Positions 1,493-16,408 are shown, counted from the first letter of the stretch. The stretch is 16,873 nt of DNA from Verrucomicrobiota bacterium (GCA_046047235.1 JBJOII010000099.1:1-16873); one strand, 5' to 3'. The notes: generated by a model not told the origin, from the letters alone. Program-made: numbers and translations.

Positions 1493-2875
1493 ATGACCCC
1501 GGCGGACCTCATCAGACTGGGCGTCCCCCTCGGACGCCCAGTCCGCCGGGCCAATGACTTCATTGCCAATTACTGCCTCAAGGGACTCGATCGCTCTCGG
1601 ATCGAGGACGAAATCCGCTCCATTCTCGCCAACCCGACGGCTTACGCCGAGGACCCGCTCCGCGGCTCCTTCGCCCGGTCCCTCCTCAAACCCCGCCCTG
1701 CCCTCAAGGACCCACCTGCGGACTACCACCAGTGGGGCAATGATCTCGACCCCCAGTCAGTCCAGCAAATGGAACAGGCCTGCCGGCTGCCCGTCGCAGT
1801 CGCTGGCGCACTGATGCCCGATGCCCATATCGGCTATGGCCTGCCCATCGGCGGCGTCCTCGCCACCCACAACGCCGTCATCCCTTACGCCGTCGGTGTC
1901 GACATCGCCTGCCGGATGAAAATGACGGTGCTGGACCTCCCCGTCCGGCGCATCGAATCCCGCGCCGACCGCCTCATCTCCGCCATCGAATCCGAAACCC
2001 GCTTTGGCATCGGTGCCAGTTTCCAGGACCGACGGCAACACCCCGTCATGGATGCCGACTGGTCAGTGACCCACATCACTGCCGAGCACAAGGACAAGGC
2101 CTGGTCCCAGCTCGGAACCAGCGGCTCCGGCAACCACTTCGTCGAGTTCGGTACACTCGAAATCACTGCACCCGACCTGACCCTTCCCCCCGGTCTCTAC
2201 CTCGCACTTCTCAGCCATAGCGGCAGCCGCGGCACCGGCGCCGCCATCTGCAACCACTACAGCAAACTCGCCGTTAAACTCCATCCCGACCTCCCCCACG
2301 AAATCTCCCGCCTCGCTTGGCTCGACCTCAACTCCGAACCCGGACAGGAATACTGGAACGCCATGGAACTCATGGGCCAATACGCCGCCGCCAACCACGC
2401 TGTCATCCACCAGTCCATCGCCGCCAATTTGGGCGCCGAAGTCCTCCTCGATATCGAAAACCACCACAACTTTGCCTGGAAAGAGCACCACCTCGGCCAG
2501 GACCTCATCGTTCACCGCAAAGGCGCTACTCCCGCCTCCATCGGCACGCTCGGCATCATCCCGGGTTCGATGGCCACACCAGGCTTCCTCGTCCGTGGCA
2601 AAGGCAACCCCCTCTCCCTCCAGTCCGCCTCCCACGGCGCCGGACGTTGCATGAGCCGTACCCAAGCCACCAAGAAATTCACCTGGAATAACGTCCAGGC
2701 ATACCTCCAAAAACAAGGCGTCAAACTCATATCCGCCGGCCTCGACGAAGTCCCCATGGCCTATAAAAATATCCACACCGTCATGGCCGCTCAAACCGAC
2801 CTCATCGAACCCCTCGCCCAATTCAATCCTAAGCTCGTCAAAATGGCCCCCGCCGGAGAACGCCCCGAAGATTAA
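1493..2875 (+). CDS. rtcB: RtcB-family RNA-splicing ligase (3'-phosphate/5'-OH RNA ligase). It carries an N-terminal extension of about 60 aa relative to E. coli RtcB.
   Basis: Four conserved RtcB metal/GTP-site motifs are present. MPDAHIGYGLPIGGV matches E. coli MPDVHLGKG. GSGNHFVEFG is present. ENHHNFAW is present. SASHGAGR matches the HGAGR active-site histidine. The ATG at 1493 lies 12 nt after the upstream stop, and the gene ends in TAA at 2873-2875. Confidence 0.8.
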   Translation: MTPADLIRLGVPLGRPVRRANDFIANYCLKGLDRSRIEDEIRSILANPTAYAEDPLRGSFARSLLKPRPALKDPPADYHQWGNDLDPQSVQQMEQACRLPVAVAGALMPDAHIGYGLPIGGVLATHNAVIPYAVGVDIACRMKMTVLDLPVRRIESRADRLISAIESETRFGIGASFQDRRQHPVMDADWSVTHITAEHKDKAWSQLGTSGSGNHFVEFGTLEITAPDLTLPPGLYLALLSHSGSRGTGAAICNHYSKLAVKLHPDLPHEISRLAWLDLNSEPGQEYWNAMELMGQYAAANHAVIHQSIAANLGAEVLLDIENHHNFAWKEHHLGQDLIVHRKGATPASIGTLGIIPGSMATPGFLVRGKGNPLSLQSASHGAGRCMSRTQATKKFTWNNVQAYLQKQGVKLISAGLDEVPMAYKNIHTVMAAQTDLIEPLAQFNPKLVKMAPAGERPED

Positions 2876-3196: not shown

Positions 3197-6187
3197 TTAC
3201 TTCCGCAAACGGAAGAAGCCCGGCGTGCTCGTGGTGTGGCTGGTTTCACCGGCAGTCGACACATCCTGCCAGGTCGCACCGCTCAGGTCAGAGGCCTGCT
3301 GTAGTACTGCAGTGCTGTCACTCCAGGTGACAGTCACGCTGCCTGCACCAGCATCATAGGTCACACCGCCAACCTCAGGCTGCGTCACCACGTCAATCAC
3401 CACGGTCGACAGGTCGTTGCCCGCCAACCCGGCAGCGTAGATCGCCGCGACCTCAGTCGGGGTCACCACACGACGCCAGATGCCCAGATCGTCTACGCTC
3501 AGGTCGGTGAACGTCGAACCATAGGATCCCGTGCCGTCCTGGCCAATGTTCGTGCTGTTCGCTCCAGGAGTCGTCACGTCACGCACACCGTCGCCAATCA
3601 GGGTCCGGTTCGCCAACACTCCGTCCACATAGGTCGAGGCCATACCGCTGCGGTCATAAGCCACCACCACATGGTGCCAGTTCGCGTTGCCGAAGGTGCC
3701 GCCAGGACCGTCGTAGTCCTTGCGACCAGCCGGAGGACCAGCGTAGTTCCACTGCACACGACCATCACCGTCACCGGCGATCACGTAGCCCTGGTTGCCA
3801 CCGCTGTTCCAGTCCTTGTTGCCAATGAACGAAGGATCACCACTCCAGCCACCCTCGGGATTCAACGCCCAGAAGCTGATCGAGAAGTCGACGTCCGATC
3901 CGAAGTCCAGATCCGAAGGCGCCCCCAAGGACACGTAGTCAGAACCGGAAGGAATGTTCACCGCACCGCCAACGGCGCCAGTCACAAAGGTCGGGCTGCC
4001 CACGGCCTGCCCGTTGTTCCCTGCACCCGACGCGTCGTTCAGGTTGTTGTCAAACTTCAGGTGCACCACCAGATCCTGCCCGATGCTGCCCGCAAACACG
4101 TCCACCTGCGTGGACTTGCTCATCACGGCCGCACCACCAGTCAACTGCGCGTTGCTCACTTCCACGGCATACGTGCCAGCATCCGAAACGCTGGCCGATG
4201 CCACGCTGTAGGTCGCCTCGGTCGCTCCCGCGATCGCCGCACCGTCCTTATACCAGGTGTAGGTGAACGGCTCAGTCCCGGTCGCAGTGACCGACAAGCT
4301 GAACGAAGAACCCGCATGCACCCACGATCCCGCCGGCTGATCACCGATCACCGGAGGCAACGCCGTGTTGATGCTATACAAGCCGACGTTGTCCACGCCG
4401 AAGTACCAGCTCGCGGTGCCGGCCTGCATGAAGCGCAGTCGAACGGCCGCTTGATTGTCGGCCTGAGGCAGGCGGAACAACTCAACGCGCTTCGACTCCA
4501 AACGATCGTCGTTGATACGACCACTGATGTAAGGCGCCAGATCCTGGGAAACCGTGGCACCAATCCACGCGCCATACGCCTCACCATGCGCCTGGTCAGC
4601 ACGCACCTCGCTCAAAGTCGCCACTGCGTCAACTTCTTCCCCGTTCATGATGATGTCCGGCGCGTCAATCATGTAGACCACCGGCAGCCAAGTCGCACCG
4701 CCATCAATGGAATACTCCACCGAGGCAATGTTGTCCTGGTTCTGCTCATACATGCTGTGATACGAGAGATACACGTTGTTCTGTCCGGAACAGTTGAAGT
4801 CCTTCGAGAACATCACCTGCACCTGATTTCCGCTGCGGACATCCGATTCGCCATAGGCAAAGTTTCCGCTCACCAGGCTCTCCAATACCACGCCGTTTTC
4901 CACGATCGGATTCAGCGCAAGACGACGGGCCGAATCCACGTTCAGGGCCGCCAAGGTGTCCGTGCTGATCACCACGAAGTCCGCATACGAATCTGAATTC
5001 GCATTGCTCAAATCCAAACCCGTGCCCGCAATGTCCGTCAGGTTGGTCACAGTCCAGCCAGCCGGAAGCGACCCCTCAGCCACCGCGTCAAAGGTCTCCA
5101 ACGCAATCGGTGAAGGCAGATTCACGTTGATGTAGTCCGCCACGGTAAACGTCCAGCTCTCCGTACGCGCACCGTCCGCACTGTCCGTCCAGTTCAGCTG
5201 AACGGAATGCTCGGTCAAAGGAGCCAGCACAGAGGCCGGGGTGTACACAATCGTGTAGGACTTCCCGTCAACGGTAATCCCCGGCGTCACCGCCGCACCG
5301 TCAAACTCCATCTGAATGCTCCCCTGCGCCACGGTGCTGCCACCCTGGTTCAAGACCACTGTCACTGCCGGAACCGGCGAGGCATTCACACCGTTCACCG
5401 CCGGATCACGCGACTCGATAAAGCTCGAGACGGTCGGGATCGAGGTCGGAATCCCGGCCGCACTCGGCCCGCCCAACGCAATCATGTCCCCCGCCGTCAG
5501 CACCTGCGCCCACAACTGAATGCTGTTCACATAACCCGGGGCAATGTCCCCGTCATTATCCGTGAACAACTCAGCATAGTAGTTCGGTGCCATGGCCCAA
5601 CGACCCTCCAGCACGTTGCCCAGGTTCTGCACACCCACCTCAGCGCCGTCGATGTACTTGCGCATGGTCCCGGTCACGCTGTCCATCGTCACCGCAATCC
5701 GGTGCCAGGTGTCAGCCACAACCTGACCGTCATACTGGCCACTAATACCAATCCCGTTCGAGGTGTTCACAAAGAACTCCGCGTCGGCATTGATCACGCT
5801 CTCATCAATATCAATGATCGAACGCCACTTGGAATCAGAAGCCGCCGGGAACAACACGTCCATGATTAGCGTCCATTGGTTCACCAATGAGCCGCCCCCG
5901 TTCGCCGCCGTCGGTGTCGGCATCCGCAAACCCGAGCCAATCTCATAACCCGTGAAGCTCAGGACCTGCGCCACCTCACCGTTGATGTCCGGAATACCAA
6001 AAGAAGTGGTGCTGCCAAAGGCAGTCCCCGCCTGCCCGCTCGCCCCGTAAGTCATGTCTCCACCTATCGTCGCCGATAGGTTGCCACTGTTGAAATCCCA
6101 CTGTCCGCTCGGCGCGGCCTGCAAGGTCATATACCCTGCACATGCCGCCACCGCCACAAACAGGCTGGGTCGGATGGTTGTTCGCAT
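3197..6187 (-). CDS. Large secreted cell-surface protein (996 aa). It has an N-terminal signal peptide, Ig-like (I-set-like) repeats and a LamG/concanavalin-A-like lectin domain. A small beta-sandwich-like tail ends ...TWQDVSTAGETSHTTSTPGFFRLRK.
   Basis: The signal peptide is MRTTIRPSLFVAVAACAGYMTLQAAP. The Ig-like signature is YTWYKDGAAIAGATEATYSVASASVSDAGTYAVEVSN. A LamG-like stretch reads NWHHVVVAYDRSGMASTYVDGVLANRTLIGDG. The composition is Thr/Ser/Gly/Val-rich, typical of adhesin-like beta-sandwich repeats. The start ATG is at 6185-6187 and the stop TAA at 3197-3199. Confidence 0.7.
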   Translation of the reverse strand: MRTTIRPSLFVAVAACAGYMTLQAAPSGQWDFNSGNLSATIGGDMTYGASGQAGTAFGSTTSFGIPDINGEVAQVLSFTGYEIGSGLRMPTPTAANGGGSLVNQWTLIMDVLFPAASDSKWRSIIDIDESVINADAEFFVNTSNGIGISGQYDGQVVADTWHRIAVTMDSVTGTMRKYIDGAEVGVQNLGNVLEGRWAMAPNYYAELFTDNDGDIAPGYVNSIQLWAQVLTAGDMIALGGPSAAGIPTSIPTVSSFIESRDPAVNGVNASPVPAVTVVLNQGGSTVAQGSIQMEFDGAAVTPGITVDGKSYTIVYTPASVLAPLTEHSVQLNWTDSADGARTESWTFTVADYINVNLPSPIALETFDAVAEGSLPAGWTVTNLTDIAGTGLDLSNANSDSYADFVVISTDTLAALNVDSARRLALNPIVENGVVLESLVSGNFAYGESDVRSGNQVQVMFSKDFNCSGQNNVYLSYHSMYEQNQDNIASVEYSIDGGATWLPVVYMIDAPDIIMNGEEVDAVATLSEVRADQAHGEAYGAWIGATVSQDLAPYISGRINDDRLESKRVELFRLPQADNQAAVRLRFMQAGTASWYFGVDNVGLYSINTALPPVIGDQPAGSWVHAGSSFSLSVTATGTEPFTYTWYKDGAAIAGATEATYSVASASVSDAGTYAVEVSNAQLTGGAAVMSKSTQVDVFAGSIGQDLVVHLKFDNNLNDASGAGNNGQAVGSPTFVTGAVGGAVNIPSGSDYVSLGAPSDLDFGSDVDFSISFWALNPEGGWSGDPSFIGNKDWNSGGNQGYVIAGDGDGRVQWNYAGPPAGRKDYDGPGGTFGNANWHHVVVAYDRSGMASTYVDGVLANRTLIGDGVRDVTTPGANSTNIGQDGTGSYGSTFTDLSVDDLGIWRRVVTPTEVAAIYAAGLAGNDLSTVVIDVVTQPEVGGVTYDAGAGSVTVTWSDSTAVLQQASDLSGATWQDVSTAGETSHTTSTPGFFRLRK

Positions 6188-6266: not shown

Positions 6267-6644
6267 CTACTTGCGCGCCTGATGGGTCTTCAACATCTCC
6301 TGCGCCGCCGCATTCCCCGCCTCCGCCGCCGCTCGCAATTGCTCCGCCACAGTCCTCAACGACCCCGCCGCAATCTCCCGCTGCTCCGGCGTCAGATCCG
6401 GCCGCGCCATCATGCTCTGTAATTCAATAAACGCACGCGGCGTGTCCTGCGACTCCATCGCCGCAATCGCACTCTCCGCATTCGCCTGCGCCTCAGGTGA
6501 CGCATCCTGAAAGGCCTCCTTCACCGCCCCCGGTGCCGCCTCGGCCGACACCGCCTCCGGCGGCTTGGAATCCCCACCGCACCCCGCCAAAAATGAAGCC
6601 GCCACCACCAACACCCCGACTCTGTAACAAATGCGCCTTAACAT
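6267..6644 (-). CDS. Small Ala-rich lipoprotein of 125 aa and unknown function.
   Basis: The N-terminus MLRRICYRVGVLVVAASFLAGCGG carries a lipobox (LAGC) after a hydrophobic h-region. A strong Shine-Dalgarno AGGAGG lies 3 nt upstream of the ATG (plus-strand cctcct at 6648-6653). The stop TAG is at 6267-6269. Confidence 0.65.
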   Translation of the reverse strand: MLRRICYRVGVLVVAASFLAGCGGDSKPPEAVSAEAAPGAVKEAFQDASPEAQANAESAIAAMESQDTPRAFIELQSMMARPDLTPEQREIAAGSLRTVAEQLRAAAEAGNAAAQEMLKTHQARK

Positions 6645-6714: not shown

Positions 6715-7533
6715 CTAGAAACTCGGCTGTTCCAAAGGCGTCTCACCTGTGTACCACCGGTAGTCCACCCCCTTGTCAAAACCCCGGAACGTAATGGTCG
6801 ATACATTCCCCGGAATCCACAACGTGTTACATCGCTTGTTGTGCCGAAACCATTCGTTAGACATGTCCAGGTTCGGATACAGCGCCGCCAAATCATACCG
6901 CCATTGCGTCAAAATCTCCCGCTGACCGGGGAATAAACCCAGACTGTCGGTCGTTCCCTCCATCCGCTGCTCCGCTGCGTCCTGCGCAAAAATCGTCGTC
7001 GAAGGACTCTGAAAAGTGCTCAGCTTCATGGGCCCCAGATCCCCGCGATACGAGGACACCACAAACCGGTTCAAGCCGTAGGAGGAATAGAGCCAGAACT
7101 CTTTCGGATAGGTCTTCCCCTCCTCCCGCCACTCGTCCACCACCCGCGCACTGGGACACCGATAGATATCCTTGGTCCCGCCAAAATAACTCACATACGC
7201 AATCCCCCAATACGCCTCACCGTCCGTAGGCTCCAGCTGCACGGTCGACCGAGGATTCCGCACCCATTGCCCGTGGTTCGGCGCGCTGGCCGCCCCGGAA
7301 CTATCCAACACGTGATGGAAGGTATCGTTGTTGTCCTCCGCATACATGGTGGTGCCCAAGCCAATCTGGTGCAGGTTGTTCAAGCACTTGGTCTGACGAG
7401 CCTTCTCCTTGGCCTTCGCCAGCGCCGGTAACAACATGCCGGCCAAGATCGCGATAATCGCAATCACGACCAAAAGCTCAATAAGGGTGAACCCCGAAAA
7501 ACGGGCGTTCTTATTGGGAATTCTCAAAACCAT
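6715..7533 (-). CDS. Prepilin-type N-terminal cleavage/methylation domain protein of the DUF1559 / H-X9-DG-like family. This family is massively expanded in Planctomycetota/Verrucomicrobiota.
   Basis: The N-terminus [14 protein letters not shown]|[28 protein letters not shown] has the class-III (type IV pilin) leader with cleavage after Gly, Phe at +1 and Glu at +5. The C-terminal motif [19 protein letters not shown] resembles the DUF1559 H-x2-N-x-LW-x-(D/P)G-xV signature. The start ATG is at 7531-7533 and the stop TAG at 6715-6717. Confidence 0.85.
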
Positions 7534-7774: not shown

Positions 7775-8605
7775 TCACCCCCCGCCAGCGCCGGAATACT
7801 TGGAAGCGCCCGGCATCGTTTTAAACCTCTCCAAGGCGCTCCTTCCCCAATCCTTCCGACGCTCCACGGCCCCGGGGCCTGCAACCCCGGCGGCCTGAAC
7901 CGCCTTCTGCCCCGCCACGGCAGGCTCGGCACTCACCACAGGCTTCGCAGGGACTGAGGGCACCGGCAAAACCGGAGCAGGTCTCGGCTCAAAAAATGAA
8001 CTCCTCCCGAGCCCCATACCCGATGTCGCCATCACCTCCCCCGGCTCCGTCGCCCCAACAGCCGCCACACCGATCTCACGCGCCAACTCGGCTTCCGGCT
8101 TCCAAACCAAACGCACCGACGGCACCGGCCCCACATGCACCACCAGCCGGTAATACACCTGCCCCGCCAGATCCACCCGGTCCACCATGGACTCCGCCTG
8201 TAAAATCGAAGCCAGCAACCCCTTCAGCACGGGTCGCTCGGCATTCGCCGTCACCAGCGACCGCAACGCCCGCTCCGATACATCCCGTACCCGATCCAAC
8301 TCCAACAACAACCTCGGCACCGGAGTCAGTTCCATCTGGAACTCACCCAGCTCATACCCCGCCTCCAAAATCACCGGCGCACCACCGTGGATCTCATGCA
8401 AGGCCTCCACCAACCGGTCCGGCCCCTCCGCCTTGAAGCCGGCTACACTCCCCTGCAACTCAACCTGCAGCTGGCGAAGCTGACCACTCGCCGCCGTGAC
8501 CGCCCCGCGAATCTCAGCCACCTTCGGCGGCACCAGCTGCAACGCCTCCTGAAACCGCGCCGCGCTGTCCCCCAAATGCTGCAGCTTGCGAATAAATTTC
8601 TTCAT
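7775..8605 (-). CDS. Hypothetical cytoplasmic protein of 276 aa. The N-terminal half is helical/coiled-coil-like and the C-terminal roughly 90 aa form a Pro/Ala/Val-rich low-complexity tail. It is the last gene of the flotillin-AAA cassette. The ORF-track start at 8677 would overlap the upstream gene, and the ATG at 8603-8605 (MKKFIRKL...) is preferred.
   Basis: The ATG at 8605 is preceded by GAGGAAAGG (a Shine-Dalgarno sequence overlapping the TGA of the giant gene), with only 13 nt between the genes. There is no TM segment or signal peptide. The tail reads ...FFEPRPAPVLPVPSVPAKPVVSAEPAVAGQKAVQAAGVAGPGAV... The stop is at 7775-7777. Confidence 0.6.
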   Translation of the reverse strand: MKKFIRKLQHLGDSAARFQEALQLVPPKVAEIRGAVTAASGQLRQLQVELQGSVAGFKAEGPDRLVEALHEIHGGAPVILEAGYELGEFQMELTPVPRLLLELDRVRDVSERALRSLVTANAERPVLKGLLASILQAESMVDRVDLAGQVYYRLVVHVGPVPSVRLVWKPEAELAREIGVAAVGATEPGEVMATSGMGLGRSSFFEPRPAPVLPVPSVPAKPVVSAEPAVAGQKAVQAAGVAGPGAVERRKDWGRSALERFKTMPGASKYSGAGGG

Positions 8606-8608
8606 AAC

Positions 8609-8619
8609 GATCCTTTCCT
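8609..8619 (-). promoter_or_regulatory. Shine-Dalgarno sequence (GAGGAAAGG) for the 276-aa gene, overlapping the stop codon of the giant ATPase gene. This indicates translational coupling.
   Basis: Plus-strand cctttcctc is the reverse complement of gaggaaagg, ending about 6 nt before the ATG at 8605. Confidence 0.5.
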
Positions 8620-11600
8620 CAACGCTCGGCCTGGCTGGCACCCTCCTGTTCCCCACCCTTTCCCGACTCCCCACCACGCACCGACAATGCCCGCTGGAAC
8701 TGCTCCAAAAACGCCTGCTCGTTCTCCATCATCTCCTGCGTCAACCGAATCTCCACCGTCCCGTCCCGCGCCTTCGCCAACAGCATCTCCTCCACGCTGC
8801 GCAAGTAATCCCGCTGCCTCGCCGCAATGTCCTTCAAGGTCGCCAAAGTGCTGTGAACCATCTCCATCTCATGCATCACACTCCCCATCCGGTCCGCCGT
8901 CGTCGCCGCATACACCTCCTGAATCACCCGCGTCAAATCCGCCCTCAACCCCTCCAAGCCCGCACCCACCCGATGCGCCGCCGACACCACGGCATCGGTC
9001 CCGCTTACCCCGGCACTCTCTCTCGCCCTCAACCCCTGCTCCATCACGGATCGCATCGCTTCCAACTGTCCCGCCAATGGAGCCAAATCCAGCGGAGCAG
9101 ACTCAGGCTTCGTCGCCTCACCCCGCTTCGCCAGCGCCTCACTCACCACCCCTCGCAACGCCGCCAGCCCCTGCTCCACCGGCCCCAGGTCCACCACCAC
9201 CGACGGCCCGGCATTCCGCGCCTTAAACTGCGCCTCCAAGGTCTGCCGGATCCCGTCCAACCCCGACTCAAAGGCCGACAACTGCGCCACCACCCGCCCC
9301 ACCGGATCTGAACCCTCCCCACCCTGAGACAACAGGTTCCTCCGAAACACGCGCTTGATGTCCGCCCAGCGCTCCGCCTCCGCCTCGGTCTGCACCCCCA
9401 GCAGTTCCTTGAACTTCAAAAGGTTCGCCTCCGCCCCCGTCGTCAGTGTCTGGGATTCCCCCCGATAATGCTCCACCACCAACGCCCGCACCTCCGCCTC
9501 GCTCAGGATCGGAACCACCTTTTCCGCCAGCCGGTTCATGTTCCGATACGAACCCTGCAGCTTGAACGCCGGCTCCGTCCGGTACGCATCGGCCTGCCCT
9601 GCCGAATGGATATACTCCTGGTTCACCCGCAGGATCACCTCGCGCACCGCCACCAGTTTCACCATCACCGACAAAAGTTCCTCCACCTCCTGCGCCGCAT
9701 AACTCCCCTCCAGCCCCTCCAGATCCCGCTCCCCCGTCTCTGCCATCCGGATAAACGCCCGAATGTCTTTCTGACTCTTGTTCGCCAACGGCGCCAAGGT
9801 CGCGTTCGATGTCACCGCATTCTCCAGGTAACTCCGCCGAAACGCCTCCGCACTCCCGCCCAGGATGTCGCCCAAATTGTACGTGTCCGCCCGGTTCGCC
9901 AACATGTCCGGTATCCGGAACTTCAAACCGCTCTCGGTATACGGATTGCCCGCCATCACCACCACCACCTTGCGCCCCCGCAAATCATACGTCCGCGGCC
10001 GACCACGCCAGACCCCTTCAATCTTCCGCTGTGCATCACACAACGAAATGAACTTCTGCAAAAACTCCGCATGACAATGCTGGATGTCATCCACATAGAT
10101 CATCGCATTGTCCCCCATCTCCAAGGCGAGGTTCAAACGCCGCACCTCCTCCCGCGCCGCCGCATTCGGCGCCTCCTCCGGATCCAACGATGTCACCCCA
10201 TGCCCCAAGGCCGGACCGTTGATCTTCACAAAAACAATCCCCAGCCGGTTCGCGATATACTCCATCAAGGTGGTCTTGCCATACCCCGGCGGCGATATCA
10301 CCAGCAGCAACCCCATCAAATCAGTCCGCTTCTGATCCCCCGCCGCACCCACCTGCTTCGCCAAGTTGTCGCCAATCAAAGGCAGATACACCTCGTCAAT
10401 CAGCTGGTTCCGCACAAAGGACGTCAGCACCCGCGGCTTAAACTCGCCCAACCGTAACCGCTCCCGCTCCGCATCCAGCAACTCCCGCTTCACCTCCTGA
10501 TACCGGTTGAACCTCGGCACCACCTCCGCCTCAAACCGCCCCAACCGCTTCCGAAAATCCAGATAATCAAACCGGTACACCCCGCCCGCTATCCGCCGGT
10601 GGCTCCCCTTCATCCCCTCCAGATCCACCCGCGTCCTCGCCTCCACCACTTCCCAATTCACCCCCTCCCCGCAAAACAATACCGCCGCCACTTCCTCCAA
10701 ATACCGCACTCCCTCCGCACGCCCGGACAAGAAACCCCGCACCCAGTCCCGCACCAACTCCAGCTCGCTTCCCGGATGCGACGCCACTTCCTCCCGCACC
10801 CGACGAAAATCACTCTCCGCGCCCAGCCGCACCAGGTCGGCTTCAAACGCCGTGACCTGCTCCCTCCCCTCCCGGCTCAACACAAACCCCTCGCTCGACG
10901 TCAATTGGTCAACCAGATACCCCGCCGCCGCACCACACAACCCCTCCGTATACAAACCGGTCTCCCGCACAAAATCCCCCAGCAACTTCTCCAGCCCGCG
11001 CCGATACCCCTCCTGTCTCGTGTCCCCGGGAAATAATCGGTTGCGCCGACCCAACCCCCTCAGCTTCGCACCCCATAACGCCCGCACCTCATCCGGACAA
11101 AACCGCTGCCAATACACCACCGCACACGCCCGCACCTCAGGCGCATACCGCGCCAAACCCAACGCCCGATGCGCCTCCGCCAGCACCCGTAAAATCTTCG
11201 CCCCATCCGCATCGTGCACCCCCTTCACATACCCCTCCTGATACCGCCCCCCCATATACTCCCGCACCCGCTCCAATATCACCCCCTCCTCCAATTCCCC
11301 CACAACCCCGCCACCCGCTTGCCCCAGCAACCAGGCCAGACATCCCTGCGCCAAATACTCGGCCCGATACACCTCCCCATCCTCAGATACGACCTCCTGA
11401 CCCCACGCCTCCCGCGTGCCCAAAAATGCCTCGTCCCGGATCACCTCAAAATACTGGGTCGATGTCAGATGAAAACAGGGCTCCCCCTCCCGCTGCACCA
11501 CGGTCAAATCCAACGCCTGCGTGTTGACATTAAAACGATGCCGCCCCAGCCGGATCACCGCCTGCCCCCCGACAAACAACTCCTGCCGATCCTTCAACTG

Positions 11601-14171
11601 CCGCACCGCATCCTGCTGCACCGACTTCAGCCGCCCCGCCAGATCATCCGCCTTCACGGAATCTTCCAGCGCCATCAAATGACCCATGGTGTCCCGCACC
11701 TTGCTCACCATCAGGTCCGACACCATGTAAGTGTGGATCTCCTCCACACTCTCAAAACCCGCCAACCGCGACTGGATCACTTTCAAGATCCGCTCCGCCG
11801 CCCCCATCAATGCCCCCGCCCGCCGATTCCGCTCCTCCACCAACGCCAGCTTCCGCTGCTCAAAGGCCTCATACAACTCCGCCCGCCGCCCCGCCAGCTC
11901 CACGGTGTAATCTTCAAAATCCGCAAACGCACCCTCCAACTCCTCCAACTGCACCGATATCCGGTTCAAATACTCATCACACCTCGCCGGCGTGTCGCAC
12001 AAATCCAAGTAGCTGGAGGCCGACTGCGACAGTAACTTCAACTGCGCCGCAAACTGCGCCGCACCCTCCTTCGACGCCAACTCCTTCAACCGCTGCTTCA
12101 ACGCCGCCTTGGCCTGGTTCAACGTCGCATACACCGACGTAATACCGTCCAGTATCCGCGTGGTCTCAGTCGCATCCTCAATCTTCAGGCTGTTCACCAC
12201 CTCCACCAGCATCTCCAGCCCGCCCCCCGCCTCACCAATCTCCTTCTCCAATGCCCGCCCCTCAGCCGCCTTCCCCACGACCTCCACCCCACGCAAAAAA
12301 CCGTCCGCCCTGCCCCGATGCCCGTCCAAGGCCTCAGGCAACAACAAGAACTTCACGGTCGCCTGCGCCAACTCATCAGTCTGCCCCACCACCGCCGCCT
12401 CCACTTCCCCCACCTGGCCCACATCCACATACCGCACCTCCCGCAACGCCAGCAAATCCCCGCGCAATCTCCGTAAACCCGCCAAATGCCCCACGTAATC
12501 ATCCAAACTCTTGAAACTCGTCCGCCGCACGGCCTGCATCCGCTCCTCACAATGCCCCCGCACCAACTCCATCCGCTCCCCCGCCTCCCGCTGCAACCGC
12601 CGCACTTTGTCAAACTCGTCCACCGCACGATCCGCCGCCTCCCTCACCCGGCCCAACGCCTCACCCACCCCATAACCCTCCTCGCCCCCCAGCCAGGAAT
12701 ACGCATCCAACATCGCTCCACACCGCCGAACGACATCTGTATACAACTCCGCATACGGTTCCTCCTTGCGCAACAAGGTCATCACCTCGTTCCCCTCCGC
12801 CAAACACCGCACCACCGCCTTGTTCCCCACCTGATACAAAAACGCCTCGCGCTGCCCCGCCGGCTCCTGCCCCGCCTCGTGAAACGGCGTCTGCCAAACC
12901 TGCACCAAATGATGCTTCTGCGCCTCCTGCTCCGCCCGAAACAACGCCACATGCCCGTTCGGAAATATCGAAAACCCATGACACCCCAACCGCTGCTCCA
13001 CCTTCTGCTCAATCAACCGATACGGCATCAACACGTAATCCCCACTCAGCCGATTGTAAAAAACATACAGGGAATCCTCCCCGTTCGGTGCATGCACCAC
13101 CCGCTCCACCAACAAATCCTTCTCCCGACTCTCAAATCGCTTCACCTCCCCCGTCGCCAAACAAACCCCATCCGGAAAAATCAACCCGTGATCCTCCGGC
13201 AACCGCACACACGACTGCCCAATCGAATCCACCCGCACCACCGTCCGCTGCTTGCCGTTGTAAATGAAATACCGCGCGTCCGCCTCCTTATACGGCCGCA
13301 CCCGCAACACCACCAGATGCTGCATCAACGCATACGCAATCTCCGCATCATCCACCTTCTGGTTCTTGTCCTCCACCGGCTCAGCATAAATCCCCTGCCC
13401 CGTGTCCGTGTTGTCCTCCACTTTGATGGTCAAATCCCCCTCGGTACACTCCACAAATAACCGGTCCTCAATCGATACATGCGGATGATCCCCATACCGA
13501 TACGCCTCCCGCCCCGGCGTCAACCAACGAAAATCATACTGCGGAGGAAATCCCACCCGACGATACTCCGCCTCCGCCCGACCATCCATATACCGCACCC
13601 CGCCCCCCTCAAAGGCCCACTTGAACACCGCAATGTCGTTCACCCCCGCCCCCGTCCCAAACACCATGTACAACCGACCCTCAATCACAGAGAATTTCCG
13701 CAGCCTGCTCTTCTCATACACGTTGTACAACCGCTTGAAATCCGCCTCAAAAACCGGATCCCGCAACACCTCCAGACTCTCCTCCCGAAAACTGCCCGTC
13801 TCTCCATCCCTCACGTAAACAGCAAACACATCCCCCAGATCCACCTGCCGCTTCAAACCAAAGTGCACGTTGAACCCAAATAAAAACCGCCCCTGCCCCA
13901 ACTGAACCATGTCCCGCGGAACACAGTTGTGCGACGTCACAATCCGGTCCGCCTGCAATAGCTGATACCCCACCGAACCAAAGACCTCGCGCCTCCGCTC
14001 ATCCAGCCGCGCCAACCCCAACCGCAACGCCTCCCCATGCTGCAATAACCGCTGCCGGATAATCTCATACGTCGCACTCCCCAACGCCTCCTGCGCCGAC
14101 GCCCCCACCACCGGCTGCCCCACGGCACCCGACGCCTCCTTCATCTCTCGCTCGTCTGCTGGCTCAGGCAT
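8619..14171 (-). CDS. Giant multidomain protein of 1850 aa with a central MoxR/AAA_5-type AAA+ ATPase core (about aa 1290-1440). An N-terminal region of about 1100 aa has no recognisable motifs; it is beta-rich and then helical. A helical, Ala/Glu/Arg-rich C-terminal region of about 480 aa follows the ATPase core.
   Basis: Walker A LLLVISPPGYGKTTLMEYIA (nt about 10265-10303). Walker B MIYVDDIQH (about 10081-10107). An AAA_5-specific sensor-1 block VVVVMAGNPYTESG...RIPDMLANRADTY (about 9947-9988) parallels the MoxR hhIATQNPxExxGTYxLPEAQLDRF block. A sensor-2-like LQGSYRNMNRL lies downstream. The ORF is 5.5 kb and uninterrupted. The start ATG is at 14169-14171 with an AGGA about 10 nt upstream. 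The stop TGA is at 8619-8621. Confidence 0.8.
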   Translation of the reverse strand: MPEPADEREMKEASGAVGQPVVGASAQEALGSATYEIIRQRLLQHGEALRLGLARLDERRREVFGSVGYQLLQADRIVTSHNCVPRDMVQLGQGRFLFGFNVHFGLKRQVDLGDVFAVYVRDGETGSFREESLEVLRDPVFEADFKRLYNVYEKSRLRKFSVIEGRLYMVFGTGAGVNDIAVFKWAFEGGGVRYMDGRAEAEYRRVGFPPQYDFRWLTPGREAYRYGDHPHVSIEDRLFVECTEGDLTIKVEDNTDTGQGIYAEPVEDKNQKVDDAEIAYALMQHLVVLRVRPYKEADARYFIYNGKQRTVVRVDSIGQSCVRLPEDHGLIFPDGVCLATGEVKRFESREKDLLVERVVHAPNGEDSLYVFYNRLSGDYVLMPYRLIEQKVEQRLGCHGFSIFPNGHVALFRAEQEAQKHHLVQVWQTPFHEAGQEPAGQREAFLYQVGNKAVVRCLAEGNEVMTLLRKEEPYAELYTDVVRRCGAMLDAYSWLGGEEGYGVGEALGRVREAADRAVDEFDKVRRLQREAGERMELVRGHCEERMQAVRRTSFKSLDDYVGHLAGLRRLRGDLLALREVRYVDVGQVGEVEAAVVGQTDELAQATVKFLLLPEALDGHRGRADGFLRGVEVVGKAAEGRALEKEIGEAGGGLEMLVEVVNSLKIEDATETTRILDGITSVYATLNQAKAALKQRLKELASKEGAAQFAAQLKLLSQSASSYLDLCDTPARCDEYLNRISVQLEELEGAFADFEDYTVELAGRRAELYEAFEQRKLALVEERNRRAGALMGAAERILKVIQSRLAGFESVEEIHTYMVSDLMVSKVRDTMGHLMALEDSVKADDLAGRLKSVQQDAVRQLKDRQELFVGGQAVIRLGRHRFNVNTQALDLTVVQREGEPCFHLTSTQYFEVIRDEAFLGTREAWGQEVVSEDGEVYRAEYLAQGCLAWLLGQAGGGVVGELEEGVILERVREYMGGRYQEGYVKGVHDADGAKILRVLAEAHRALGLARYAPEVRACAVVYWQRFCPDEVRALWGAKLRGLGRRNRLFPGDTRQEGYRRGLEKLLGDFVRETGLYTEGLCGAAAGYLVDQLTSSEGFVLSREGREQVTAFEADLVRLGAESDFRRVREEVASHPGSELELVRDWVRGFLSGRAEGVRYLEEVAAVLFCGEGVNWEVVEARTRVDLEGMKGSHRRIAGGVYRFDYLDFRKRLGRFEAEVVPRFNRYQEVKRELLDAERERLRLGEFKPRVLTSFVRNQLIDEVYLPLIGDNLAKQVGAAGDQKRTDLMGLLLVISPPGYGKTTLMEYIANRLGIVFVKINGPALGHGVTSLDPEEAPNAAAREEVRRLNLALEMGDNAMIYVDDIQHCHAEFLQKFISLCDAQRKIEGVWRGRPRTYDLRGRKVVVVMAGNPYTESGLKFRIPDMLANRADTYNLGDILGGSAEAFRRSYLENAVTSNATLAPLANKSQKDIRAFIRMAETGERDLEGLEGSYAAQEVEELLSVMVKLVAVREVILRVNQEYIHSAGQADAYRTEPAFKLQGSYRNMNRLAEKVVPILSEAEVRALVVEHYRGESQTLTTGAEANLLKFKELLGVQTEAEAERWADIKRVFRRNLLSQGGEGSDPVGRVVAQLSAFESGLDGIRQTLEAQFKARNAGPSVVVDLGPVEQGLAALRGVVSEALAKRGEATKPESAPLDLAPLAGQLEAMRSVMEQGLRARESAGVSGTDAVVSAAHRVGAGLEGLRADLTRVIQEVYAATTADRMGSVMHEMEMVHSTLATLKDIAARQRDYLRSVEEMLLAKARDGTVEIRLTQEMMENEQAFLEQFQRALSVRGGESGKGGEQEGASQAER
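9940..10305 (-). other. AAA_5 (MoxR/McrB/dynein-class) ATPase core within the giant protein: Walker A, Walker B, and the NP sensor-1 plus arginine block.
   Basis: The motif positions were located in the nucleotide sequence: ggtcttgcc is GKT on the minus strand at 10271-10279, the codons for IYVDDIQ lie at 10081-10101, and the codons for VVVVMAGNPYT lie at 9947-9980. Confidence 0.7.
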
Positions 14172-14221: not shown

Positions 14222-16396
14222 TCAACCCTGACCCGCCTTGTCCCCGCCCAATACAGACAACGCCACCGCGTCCGCCAACCCACTCTCCTTCGCCATCACT
14301 CCAGCCGACGCCAAAAGCCGCTTCACCCCGCCGTCCTCAGTCGATACCGCCAGCCGCGCCAGCAACGCCGCCACCGTCAGGTTCTTCAAATCCTCACTCG
14401 GAATCCCAAAGTCCTTCACCCACTGGCGCAACTGCACCTTGAACCGCTCCGGATCCCCATTGAAAAACGTCCGCTTGATGTCGCCCAAAGCCTCGCTGTT
14501 CGCCAACAATCGATCCACCGACTTGCCGGAACCAACCGCCTTCACAATCTTCTCAAAGAAGTCGTTCTCCCCGCCCACAATGTCGATCTTCGCGTGCTTC
14601 AACGCCTCGCCCACCAGCTCGGAATGCGCCCTCGCCACATCCCGCTCGACGCCGATCGCCGCCAGCTCCACATCCCGCTCCTTCGCCAGCTTCAACCGGA
14701 ACTCCTCATGCTGCTGCGTCGTCGCCTGGAACAACTTCATCGACTTCGCCTTCTCCTCAATCCCCTTCGCCTCAGCCAACAGCTTCGCCTCAATACCCGA
14801 TGCCGTCGCCGTCTCCTTGTCACGAATCCCCTCCGCCTCAGCCTCAGCCTGAATCTCCGTCACCTTCGCCCGCGCCTCACCCTTCAACCGGTCCACCTGC
14901 GCCTCAGCCGACCCCATCTCCAATACCGCACCCGCATCCACCTTCCGCGCATCCGCCTTGGCCTTGATCACCTTGGCCTCCGCCAACCCCTTCGCCGCCT
15001 CCCGCGCCGCCTCCCCGTCCGCCTCCTGCTCCATCGCATGCCGACGCTTCTCGGACGCCTTCGCCTCCGCATCCGCCAAAATCTGCACCCGCTCCGATTC
15101 CCGCGTCGCCGCCTCCCGCGCCGCATCCGCCTCAGTCACGGTCTTGATCCGCTGCCCCTCAGCCAGATTGCGCTCCACTTCCTTCTGCGCCTCAGCCGCC
15201 ACCACCTTCTCCACCTGATCCTTCTTCGCGTTCATGTCGGCCTCAATCAGCGTGACCTCACGCACCCGATTGGCCGTCATCTGCGCCTCAATGTTCAGCT
15301 TCTCCTCCTCCTGCTGCACCACCGCCTTCTGCTCCGCCACCACCACCGCACGCTTCCGCTCCACCTCCACAGCCGCCTCAGCCACCTTCACCTGCTTGTC
15401 CATGTCCGCCAACGAGACCACCCGCTCCCGACGCACCCGCGCCTCCTCACCCTCCTGCGCCGCCTCTTCCTCCAGCCGACGCTGCTCCTTCGTCACGGTA
15501 TACTGCCGCTCCTGCACCGCCCGCTTCATGTCCTCCGACCGCAAACTAATCGCCTCATCCGTCTCCAATCGCTTCGTCTCCACCTCCTGCCGACGCGCCT
15601 CAATCACCTTCCGCGACTCCGCCTCCTCAGTCGCCTGCACCTCGGTAATCGCCCGGGTCTGCTTGGCCGAATCCTCCTCATTGCGCCGCTTCTGCTCCCG
15701 CTTCGCAATGTCCGCATCCGCATTCTCCTTCTCAATCTGAACCCCCGCCCGCTTCGCATGCTCGTTCGCCACCACCCGCTCCCGCTGCGTAATCTCGGTA
15801 ATCTTCTTAATACCCTCCGAATCCAACACGTTGTCCGGATCATGCTGGTTCAACGGCGTCTGCTCCAAATAGTCGATCGCCACGTCCTGCAACAAAAACC
15901 CATCCAGATCCTTGCCAATCGTCTCCTGAATCCGGTCCCGGAACTTGATCCGCTCGGTAAACAACTCGTGAAACTCCATCTGCTTACCCGCAGTCTTCAA
16001 GGCCTCGGAAAACTTCGCCTCAAATAACTCCCGCAATTGCCCCTCGTCCGATACCCGCTCCGGCGTCAGCATCTGCGCCACCTTCCGCACGCTCTCCTCA
16101 GTCGCCTCCACCCGAATGTAAAATGCCACGGTAATGTCCGCCCGAATGTTGTCCTTGCACACCAACCCGTCCTTCCCCTTGCGCGCAATCTCCAGCTTCT
16201 TCACAGAAATATCGACAATGTGATACGTCTGCAAAAACGGCACCCGTACCATCCAGTCAAACGCCACCTTCAACCCGCCCCACCCCGTCTTCACCCCCGC
16301 CCGGCCAGGCTGAATCTTGCGAATGCACATCGCAAAAAACGATCCCACCACCACCAGCACCACCAAAACCGCCAGAACAATCAACAAGGTCTTCAT
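14222..16396 (-). CDS. Flotillin-like SPFH/band-7 membrane protein (YqiK/FloT-type) of 724 aa with an unusually long E/A/K/R-rich coiled-coil region. The ORF-track start at 16408 is a TTG, and the ATG at 16394-16396 (MKTLLIV...) is preferred.
   Basis: An N-terminal TM helix MKTLLIVLAVLVVLVVVGSFFAM is present. The SPFH core reads PGRAGVKTGWGGLKVAFDWMVRVPFLQTYHIVDISVKKLEIARKGKDGLVCKDNIRADITVAFYIRV. About 400 aa of EA-rich coiled coil follow (AEAKASEKRR..., QAEAEAEGIRDKE...). A flotillin-like C-terminal globular region is also present. The stop TGA is at 14222-14224. Confidence 0.85.
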   Translation of the reverse strand: MKTLLIVLAVLVVLVVVGSFFAMCIRKIQPGRAGVKTGWGGLKVAFDWMVRVPFLQTYHIVDISVKKLEIARKGKDGLVCKDNIRADITVAFYIRVEATEESVRKVAQMLTPERVSDEGQLRELFEAKFSEALKTAGKQMEFHELFTERIKFRDRIQETIGKDLDGFLLQDVAIDYLEQTPLNQHDPDNVLDSEGIKKITEITQRERVVANEHAKRAGVQIEKENADADIAKREQKRRNEEDSAKQTRAITEVQATEEAESRKVIEARRQEVETKRLETDEAISLRSEDMKRAVQERQYTVTKEQRRLEEEAAQEGEEARVRRERVVSLADMDKQVKVAEAAVEVERKRAVVVAEQKAVVQQEEEKLNIEAQMTANRVREVTLIEADMNAKKDQVEKVVAAEAQKEVERNLAEGQRIKTVTEADAAREAATRESERVQILADAEAKASEKRRHAMEQEADGEAAREAAKGLAEAKVIKAKADARKVDAGAVLEMGSAEAQVDRLKGEARAKVTEIQAEAEAEGIRDKETATASGIEAKLLAEAKGIEEKAKSMKLFQATTQQHEEFRLKLAKERDVELAAIGVERDVARAHSELVGEALKHAKIDIVGGENDFFEKIVKAVGSGKSVDRLLANSEALGDIKRTFFNGDPERFKVQLRQWVKDFGIPSEDLKNLTVAALLARLAVSTEDGGVKRLLASAGVMAKESGLADAVALSVLGGDKAGQG

Positions 16397-16408
16397 GATC
16401 GAATCCAA

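Follow-up and report, generated by a model that had tools for sequence, protein, structure and literature searches.

The locus and its genes

The subject of this report is a 16,873-nucleotide (nt) stretch of DNA from a Verrucomicrobiota bacterium (GCA_046047235.1 JBJOII010000099.1:1-16873), referred to at its full length as the window, and within it the gene for an 1,850-amino-acid (aa) ATPase of the AAA+ type. This gene is the middle one of three that lie close together on one strand. The gene upstream of it is that of a YqiK-type flotillin, and the gene downstream encodes a 276-aa protein. A preliminary description of this DNA had presented the ATPase as an orphan of MoxR class, lodged between an unrecognizable N-terminal region and a helical C-terminal one. 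The flotillin context, which that description missed, is decisive for the interpretation: because a flotillin gene is almost always found directly ahead of the ATPase gene, the ATPase most likely acts on membrane scaffolds. The three genes are as follows.

14222..16396, minus strand: 724-aa flotillin of the YqiK family, 50 nt upstream of the ATPase gene (hhalign, names of homologues, transmembrane hydropathy of 3.2)
8619..14171 including the stop codon, minus strand: 1850-aa DUF3686-DUF7902-AAA+ ATPase (list of open reading frames, translation, Pfam, full-length homologues)
7775..8605, minus strand: 276-aa partner protein, beginning 13 nt after the ATPase stop codon

A conserved flotillin-ATPase operon

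The flotillin consists of an N-terminal transmembrane helix (residues 3 to 22), an SPFH region, and a Glu/Ala-rich coiled coil. Its open reading frame begins mechanically at a TTG at 16408; the ATG at 16396 is backed by homologues, which their sources name “flotillin family protein” or “YqiK.” The subfamily to which this protein belongs, of about 700 aa and with members in L011 and L064 as well, escapes Pfam (Band_7 and Flot included) and also phmmer against the PDB. Pfam was likewise silent on the YqiJ-like genes described below, so that homology was established for both by hhalign comparison with Escherichia coli YqiK and YqiJ. A 19-member alignment of the flotillin matches E. coli YqiK with an hhalign probability of 100% (E = 1.6e-40) over 393 columns at 30% identity; the match spans about residues 7 to 465, and the C-terminal ~260 residues are unaligned.

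How general is this pairing? Our context survey covers 82 fetched loci, 63 of which have at least 3 kb of upstream flank. In 60 of these 63, the ATPase gene is preceded on its own strand by a YqiK-like gene, across six phyla and in flanks that are otherwise unrelated. Ahead of the flotillin, 50 to 54 of the 82 loci carry a YqiJ-like gene (about 220 aa, three transmembrane segments), whose product matches E. coli YqiJ (DUF1449/NfeD-like) in hhalign with a probability of 96% (E = 1.8e-9). PspA is encoded in 17 of the 82 loci and a CesT-like protein in 15; the Bacteroidota loci are those that add PspA/IM30 (PF04012, E = 9e-41), a CesT_Tir_1 protein (E = 1e-56), and a divergent XRE-type regulator. 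The same operon was described by Ravi et al. (2024; mSystems 9:e00847-23, PMC11237479), who proposed roles in ATP-dependent sub-membrane dynamics and assembly and who reported phospholipase D in some Proteobacteria and a wider distribution of “abbreviated operons.” Phospholipase D genes are present in 5 of our 82 loci, echoing those proteobacterial operons. In two of the five, a PLDc_2 gene adjoins the homologue of the 276-aa gene (L008, 16610-17314; L009, 9259-10113); the others are L030, L034, and L075. Small genes of about 125 to 185 aa sit between flotillin and ATPase in a few loci of Bacteroidota and Verrucomicrobia (L024, L038, and L043, c14; L026 and L049, c15). One type looks by eye like a DUF559/Vsr-like endonuclease, and these genes could be selfish insertions into the operon.

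A large family of collinear proteins

The reading frame at 8619..14171 runs uninterrupted from ATG to stop, and both the open reading frame list and the translation agree with the extent and the length of 1850 aa first described; every motif quoted at that time lies where it was placed. Is so large a frame a fusion, or an artifact? In a word-indexed homology search, 2,751 proteins passed E<=1e-5, and the best 120 of these are 1734 to 1931 aa long, 61 to 69% identical to the query, and nearly all cover 93 to 100% of it. A check for splitting of the gene in relatives found it in 1 of 76 clustered loci: in L042, a Rubripirellula metagenome-assembled genome, the ATPase is represented by two frames of 776 and 887 aa, probably through a frameshift or an assembly error. 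With full-length, collinear homologues and a single split locus, the frame is neither a fusion nor an assembly artifact, and with thousands of homologues the protein is no orphan.

When residues 1 to 520 were used in an exhaustive HMMER search of 1.84 billion cluster representatives, 668 clusters reached E<=1e-3, and 239 reached E<=1e-30. The complete members found in this way are 1,600 to 1,930 aa long and always carry DUF3686 at the N terminus; the same search gave no convincing case of a stand-alone DUF3686 protein, many short hits starting or stopping in mid-domain and resembling contig-end fragments. With one genome scanned per species, relatives occur in at least 584 genomes, and among the matches listed they come from Verrucomicrobiota, Planctomycetota, Bacteroidota, Desulfobacterota, Kiritimatiellota, and Clostridia; Vibrio species have a member of 1606 aa. 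The family is already cataloged in Pfam and noted in one comparative-genomics paper, and its architecture is not an orphan one.

Anatomy of the ATPase

Two AlphaFold2 models, each built from a 48-sequence alignment, cover residues 1 to 550 (model 1; predicted local distance difference test score [pLDDT] of 80.8, predicted template modeling score [pTM] of 0.78) and residues 891 to 1650 (model 2; pLDDT of 74.9, pTM of 0.45, with a low-confidence linker before the P-loop domain). Together with Pfam and composition, they give the following layout.

Residues 1-25: N terminus, predicted to be disordered (model 1)
13980..14096, minus strand: residues 26-64, long N-terminal alpha-helix (model 1, DSSP, pLDDT 72-95)
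12699..14018, minus strand: residues 52-491, Pfam DUF3686 (PF12458)
Residues 70-427: beta-rich, propeller-like core of DUF3686 with ~27 strands (model 1)
11502..12842, minus strand: residues 444-890, helical Arg/Glu/Leu-rich region (composition; conserved across phyla; helices modeled for 444-549)
12081..12335, minus strand: residues 613-697, Pfam DUF7902 (PF25472), within the helical region and present in all top homologues
10437..11501, minus strand: residues 891-1245, small beta elements and an all-alpha domain (model 2, pLDDT up to 94)
9852..10316, minus strand: residues 1286-1440, AAA+ alpha/beta (P-loop) domain (Pfam AAA, AAA_5, and AAA_22; DSSP; fold matches)
9372..9851, minus strand: residues 1441-1600, helical lid with an insertion of ~85 residues before sensor 2 (DSSP of model 2)
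8622..9224, minus strand: residues 1650-1850, Ala/Glu/Arg-rich helical tail

The N-terminal region is therefore recognizable after all. DUF3686 matches at 531.4 bits against a cutoff of 25 (E = 1.9e-159; profile positions 5 to 447 of 448), and DUF7902 matches over its full profile at 91.1 bits against a cutoff of 26 (E = 5.1e-26). The beta-rich strings that had been singled out sit at residues 94, 165, 301, and 367. Of the earlier picture of this region, the division into beta-rich and helical parts stands, and the idea of repeated beta domains finds no counterpart as sequence repeats: profile-profile comparison of the halves of the DUF3686 domain detected no blade repeats. In the model, the DUF3686 core nonetheless appears propeller-like.

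Farther along the chain, the all-alpha domain (about residues 936 to 1240) is confidently modeled, with helices at model positions 46 to 348. Residues 891 to 1245 contain no second AAA module, having no P-loop motif in the sequence and being all-alpha in the model. The helical tail is where the preliminary description had put it, downstream of the ATPase core. It is specific to the clade: homologues in most other phyla align no farther than about query residue 1645. Among the Verrucomicrobia relatives, the alignment shows conservation of the final ~90 residues. No transmembrane segment is predicted anywhere in the ATPase (maximum hydropathy, 1.52).

The AAA+ core and its placement

The signature of a real AAA+ ATPase in a giant single chain, claimed at the outset, holds up, and it belongs to one module of about residues 1286 to 1600. 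Its elements are these.

10269-10292, minus strand: Walker A, PPGYGKTT, residues 1294-1301
10086-10100, minus strand: Walker B, IYVDD, residues 1358-1362
Residues 1383-1396: beta-hairpin between alpha3 and beta4, the position of a pre-sensor-1 hairpin (DSSP of model 2)
9942-9968, minus strand: sensor 1, VVVVMAGNP (N1409), residues 1402-1410
9891-9893, minus strand: candidate Arg finger, R1427
9543-9557, minus strand: sensor 2, QGSYR (R1543), residues 1539-1543

The GK of Walker A, D1361 and D1362, N1409, R1427, and R1543 are invariant in a 29-member alignment whose members are 30 to 46% identical to the query, and they are likewise invariant in a 20-member alignment of the AAA region; the motif QGSYR.M is invariant in both. 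Invariance of the catalytic residues at such identities means that the ATPase is real and under purifying selection rather than a chance assembly of motifs, and the module is catalytically complete. The loop between beta2 and alpha2 carries the conserved sequence LGHxVTSLDPxxAPNA.

To which clade does this module belong? Pfam AAA (PF00004) and AAA_5 (PF07728) each match 20 of 20 diverse members; the former aligns over its first half only (profile positions 1 to 70 of 131), and AAA_5, aligned over positions 3 to 125 of 139, is the sole AAA model to span nearly the whole alpha/beta domain. AAA_3, the model of MoxR proper, matches weakly in 5 of the 20. Searches of PDB sequences with the whole protein and with the AAA profile gave matches confined to the stretch from the helix before Walker A through beta2 (with the profile, Rix7, NVL, and p97, at E of about 1e-6 to 3e-5, RuvB, and midasin), and matches so limited are uninformative for placement. 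When the AAA profile was compared by hhalign with seven E. coli AAA+ proteins, RuvB came first (8e-9, 75 columns), followed by ClpX, FtsH, and YifB, which match only around Walker A, and RavA reached only E = 1.6e-3; with RuvB best and RavA poor, that comparison does not support assignment to MoxR. Foldseek returned E values of 2e-4 to 2e-3 alike for FtsH, NorQ, Ycf2/FtsHi, ClpB, RuvB, p97, CbbQ, and MCM. Among structural matches, NorQ and CbbQ are marginally the best.

Our conclusion is that the core, an AAA+ module with AAA_5-like features, falls in the pre-sensor-1-hairpin superclade. The label “MoxR-class AAA_5” accordingly survives in its second half, through the coverage of the Pfam model; its first half is unproven, with neither the VWA partner nor the compact size of about 300 to 500 aa that mark MoxR proteins, the present chain having 1850 aa, some 1285 of them before the P-loop domain. 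Membership in the classical AAA clade (FtsH, p97, and Vps4) was considered and rejected, given the half-match of PF00004 and the hairpin modeled before beta4. The suggested likeness to midasin and dynein does not hold: instead of six modules, the chain has a single P-loop module, with one Walker A motif and one AAA Pfam region. Nor was a VWA/MIDAS partner found in the window, in line with the absence of the motif from the ATPase and its 276-aa neighbor noted from the start. No VWA Pfam domain was found in the three operon proteins, in the annotated 8-kb flanks of relatives L001 and L002, or among the conserved neighbor families that have a Pfam or profile assignment, and the DxSxS motif is absent from the ATPase, its 276-aa neighbor, and the upstream gene.

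The local operon variant and its 276-aa protein

The window holds no detectable gene for YqiJ, PspA, or CesT, since tblastn with all cluster members gave nothing better than E = 0.1, and the close relatives L001 to L006 and L008 to L010 lack these genes as well; the window thus represents an abbreviated variant of the operon. What most close relatives do have is a gene encoding about 280 aa. It follows the ATPase gene immediately in L001 to L005 and in L010; L008 and L009 carry it on the other strand. This 276-aa family has 37 detected homologues of about 250 to 310 aa, the named ones all from Verrucomicrobiota. Except for the two closest, they are 33 to 55% identical to the query, compared with 74 to 87% for the flotillin and 61 to 69% for the ATPase, and so the family evolves faster than its neighbors. 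In the alignment, the conserved parts are an N-terminal domain of ~170 aa and a basic C-terminal peptide, DWxxSALERFKKMPxxSKYRR; between them is a Pro/Ala/Ser linker that varies but keeps a conserved “SFFE” motif. This layout suggests an adaptor that may present short peptide motifs. Neither Pfam nor the PDB gave a match for the protein. Two identities were tried and rejected, those of a divergent PspA (Pfam PspA_IM30 at E = 0.22; hhalign probability, 1.5%) and a divergent YqiJ (hhalign probability, 0.07%). A scan of the window for promoters and terminators gave nothing above shuffled expectation.

A proposed flotillin-coupled remodeler and its rivals

Taken together, these findings lead us to favor a reading, which we hold to be as apt to be right as wrong, in which a soluble cytoplasmic ATPase works with a YqiK-type flotillin and remodels a sub-membrane scaffold in envelope stress. 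That the two proteins are functionally coupled is highly probable; the specific role of remodeling is less so, and we infer both the physical interaction of ATPase and flotillin and the nature of the substrate. In this model, the AAA+ module would oligomerize to a ring, the usual arrangement of AAA+ proteins, and hydrolyze ATP. The N-terminal arm, made up of the helix, the propeller-like DUF3686, and the helical DUF7902 region, would recognize the target, which we posit to be the cytoplasm-facing flotillin assembly and, in other lineages, possibly also the co-encoded YqiJ/NfeD-like protein and PspA. ATP turnover would then assemble, disassemble, or reshape the scaffold, in analogy with the action of Vps4 on ESCRT-III polymers. 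In the Verrucomicrobia clade, where the YqiJ gene is absent, the co-transcribed 276-aa protein may serve as an adaptor. YqiK is predicted to expose its bulk to the cytoplasm (PMC10434171), a prediction that fits an ATPase with no transmembrane segment. From the literature, the roles that Ravi et al. (2024) proposed for the operon speak for the same reading, and P. aeruginosa PA3728-PA3732, taken up below, would offer an experimental lead if PA3728 proves to be homologous.

Several points weigh against this picture. Three loci (L018, L020, and L057) have at least 7 kb of upstream flank and no adjacent flotillin gene. Since E. coli and numerous other species possess yqiJK but not the ATPase, the flotillin in general does not need it. 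In model 2, the AAA+ region is only moderately confident (pLDDT of about 65 to 80). The sequence between beta2 and alpha2 has no aromatic pore-loop motif, and a threading mechanism is therefore not indicated. Finally, we found no experimental work on any member of the family in the literature.

Might the ATPase instead work on what the flotillin gathers? The main rival holds that it extracts, unfolds, or hands over membrane or unfolded proteins corralled by the flotillin, much as FtsH sits inside the HflK/C cage. We think this unlikely: the ATPase has no protease domain and the conserved neighborhood no protease partner, the beta2-alpha2 loop lacks aromatic-hydrophobic pore residues, and the Pfam model of the classical AAA clade covers only the first half of the domain. 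Could it be an enlarged MoxR/AAA_5 chaperone that, lacking the VWA partner typical of such proteins, matures a cofactor or subunit or inserts it into a protein complex? The AAA_5-like features of the core would suit such a role, and the poor showing of RavA and the size of the chain would not; we take it to be improbable. The name under which the family travels is another matter. Pfam describes DUF3686 as “ATPase involved in DNA repair,” and some of the top homologues are “DNA repair ATPase” or “AAA family ATPase” at NCBI. A role in DNA repair can call on these inherited names and on a weak similarity to the RuvB N-terminal domain, confined to the part between Walker A and Walker B. NCBIfam gave only subthreshold RuvB and CDC48 matches for the ATPase, however, the RuvB equivalogs scoring 20 to 21 bits against cutoffs of 282 to 299; no nuclease, helicase, or DNA-binding domain was detected with Pfam or NCBIfam; the conserved neighbors to which a family could be assigned are all membrane or envelope-stress proteins; and in the searchable library we found no paper that mentions DUF3686/PF12458 or ties the ATPase to DNA repair. 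We give this reading almost no credence, and the propagated name, which nothing in the gathered evidence supports, is probably misleading.

A role in conflict or defense would have the flotillin-ATPase module sense phage or toxin at the membrane and trigger a protective or abortive response. The phospholipase D genes, two of them beside the 276-aa-type gene, the divergent XRE-family helix-turn-helix regulator of the Bacteroidota loci, and flanks that differ between relatives all point in that direction. So might Pseudomonas aeruginosa PA3728-PA3732, which are termed “phage shock proteins” and are reported to be induced together in every phage-infected sample (PMC12041424), provided that PA3728 is homologous to the DUF3686 family. 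PA3728 appears in the literature as an ATPase (PMC8190622) whose gene is recurrently hit by mutation in cystic-fibrosis isolates, and the bac cluster adjacent to PA3728-PA3732 encodes CesT-like and PspA-like proteins (PMC10948618). Against defense, PADLOC gave no meaningful match for any of the three proteins, no effector domain is encoded in the window, the flanks of close relatives are housekeeping genes (pheS/pheT, birA, and a murC-type ligase), and the module is not patchy but vertically conserved within clades, at 61 to 87% identity. On balance, we regard defense as decidedly improbable.

Returning to the reading of a flotillin-coupled remodeler, a more pointed version may be entertained. 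Could the DUF3686 ATPase be a dedicated, ATP-driven assembly or disassembly factor of YqiK-type SPFH assemblies, with its propeller-like N-terminal domain docked on the flotillin and, in this Verrucomicrobia clade, with the 276-aa protein as a peptide-motif adaptor in place of YqiJ/NfeD? We raise this tentatively, as a possibility that we would sooner bet against. If true, it would make the ATPase a bacterial counterpart of Vps4 for SPFH scaffolds; we know of no ATPase in any organism that turns over flotillin scaffolds. How bacterial flotillin assemblies are built up and dismantled is poorly understood, and E. coli flotillin deletions have only weak phenotypes. A giant, catalytically intact ATPase for which co-encoding with one flotillin subfamily is close to a rule in six or more phyla offers an experimental handle on the question. 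The interest of the protein thus stems from flotillin biology and not from novelty of architecture.

The rest of the window

The remaining annotated genes are these; all but that of the 996-aa protein are ordinary flanking genes.

104-1480 and 1493-2875, plus strand: Gfo/Idh/MocA oxidoreductase with a Tat-like signal and RNA ligase RtcB
3197-6187, minus strand: 996-aa secreted-looking protein with Laminin_G_3, Ig, and Reelin-subrepeat-like domains
6715-7533, minus strand: prepilin-type N-terminal-methylation/DUF1559 protein, typical of Verrucomicrobia and Planctomycetes

GC skew at third codon positions (GC3 skew) is extreme and tracks the DNA strand rather than gene orientation. On the coding strand, it is -0.43 and -0.62 for the plus-strand genes at 104-1480 and 1493-2875 and +0.64 to +0.77 for the minus-strand genes at 6267-6644, 7775-8605, 8619-14171, and 14222-16396, these signs meaning that the minus strand is strongly G-rich throughout the window; windowed GC skew falls as low as -0.5. 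The gene for the 996-aa protein, at +0.10, is unlike its neighbors and may be a recent acquisition.

Comparison with known systems

The closest parallel is that of the operon ATPases of Ravi et al. (2024), which share with the present protein the order of N-terminal helix, propeller-like DUF3686, helical DUF7902, and C-terminal AAA+ module, full-length identities of 30 to 69%, and a flotillin in the same upstream position. The window's clade differs from those operons in lacking YqiJ, PspA, and CesT and in having the 276-aa gene and an ATPase tail of ~200 aa. With the MoxR proteins RavA, NorQ, and CbbQ, the ATPase has in common a single AAA+ module, an AAA_5-type arrangement of sensor 1 and Arg finger, a modeled pre-sensor-1 hairpin, and an insert before sensor 2; unlike them, it is 4 to 6 times larger, has no VWA/MIDAS partner, and has a flotillin as its genomic partner. 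Midasin and dynein concatenate six AAA modules in one chain, to which midasin adds a MIDAS domain, whereas the window protein has one P-loop and no MIDAS.

Two further systems speak to what such a pairing might do. In HflK/C-FtsH, as here, an SPFH-family membrane scaffold is paired, genetically or functionally, with an AAA+ ATPase. FtsH, however, is a membrane-anchored member of the classical AAA clade with a protease domain of its own, whereas the window's ATPase is soluble and has no protease; moreover, the SPFH domains of HflK/C are periplasmic, whereas YqiK-type flotillins are predicted to face the cytoplasm. In the Vps4/CdvC-ESCRT-III systems, an AAA+ ATPase is encoded with a polymer-forming remodeler. 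PspA belongs to the ESCRT-III superfamily of membrane remodelers, and the Bacteroidota operons hold PspA. Unlike Vps4 and CdvC, the window's ATPase has no MIT domain and a core that is not of the classical clade, and the window contains no PspA.

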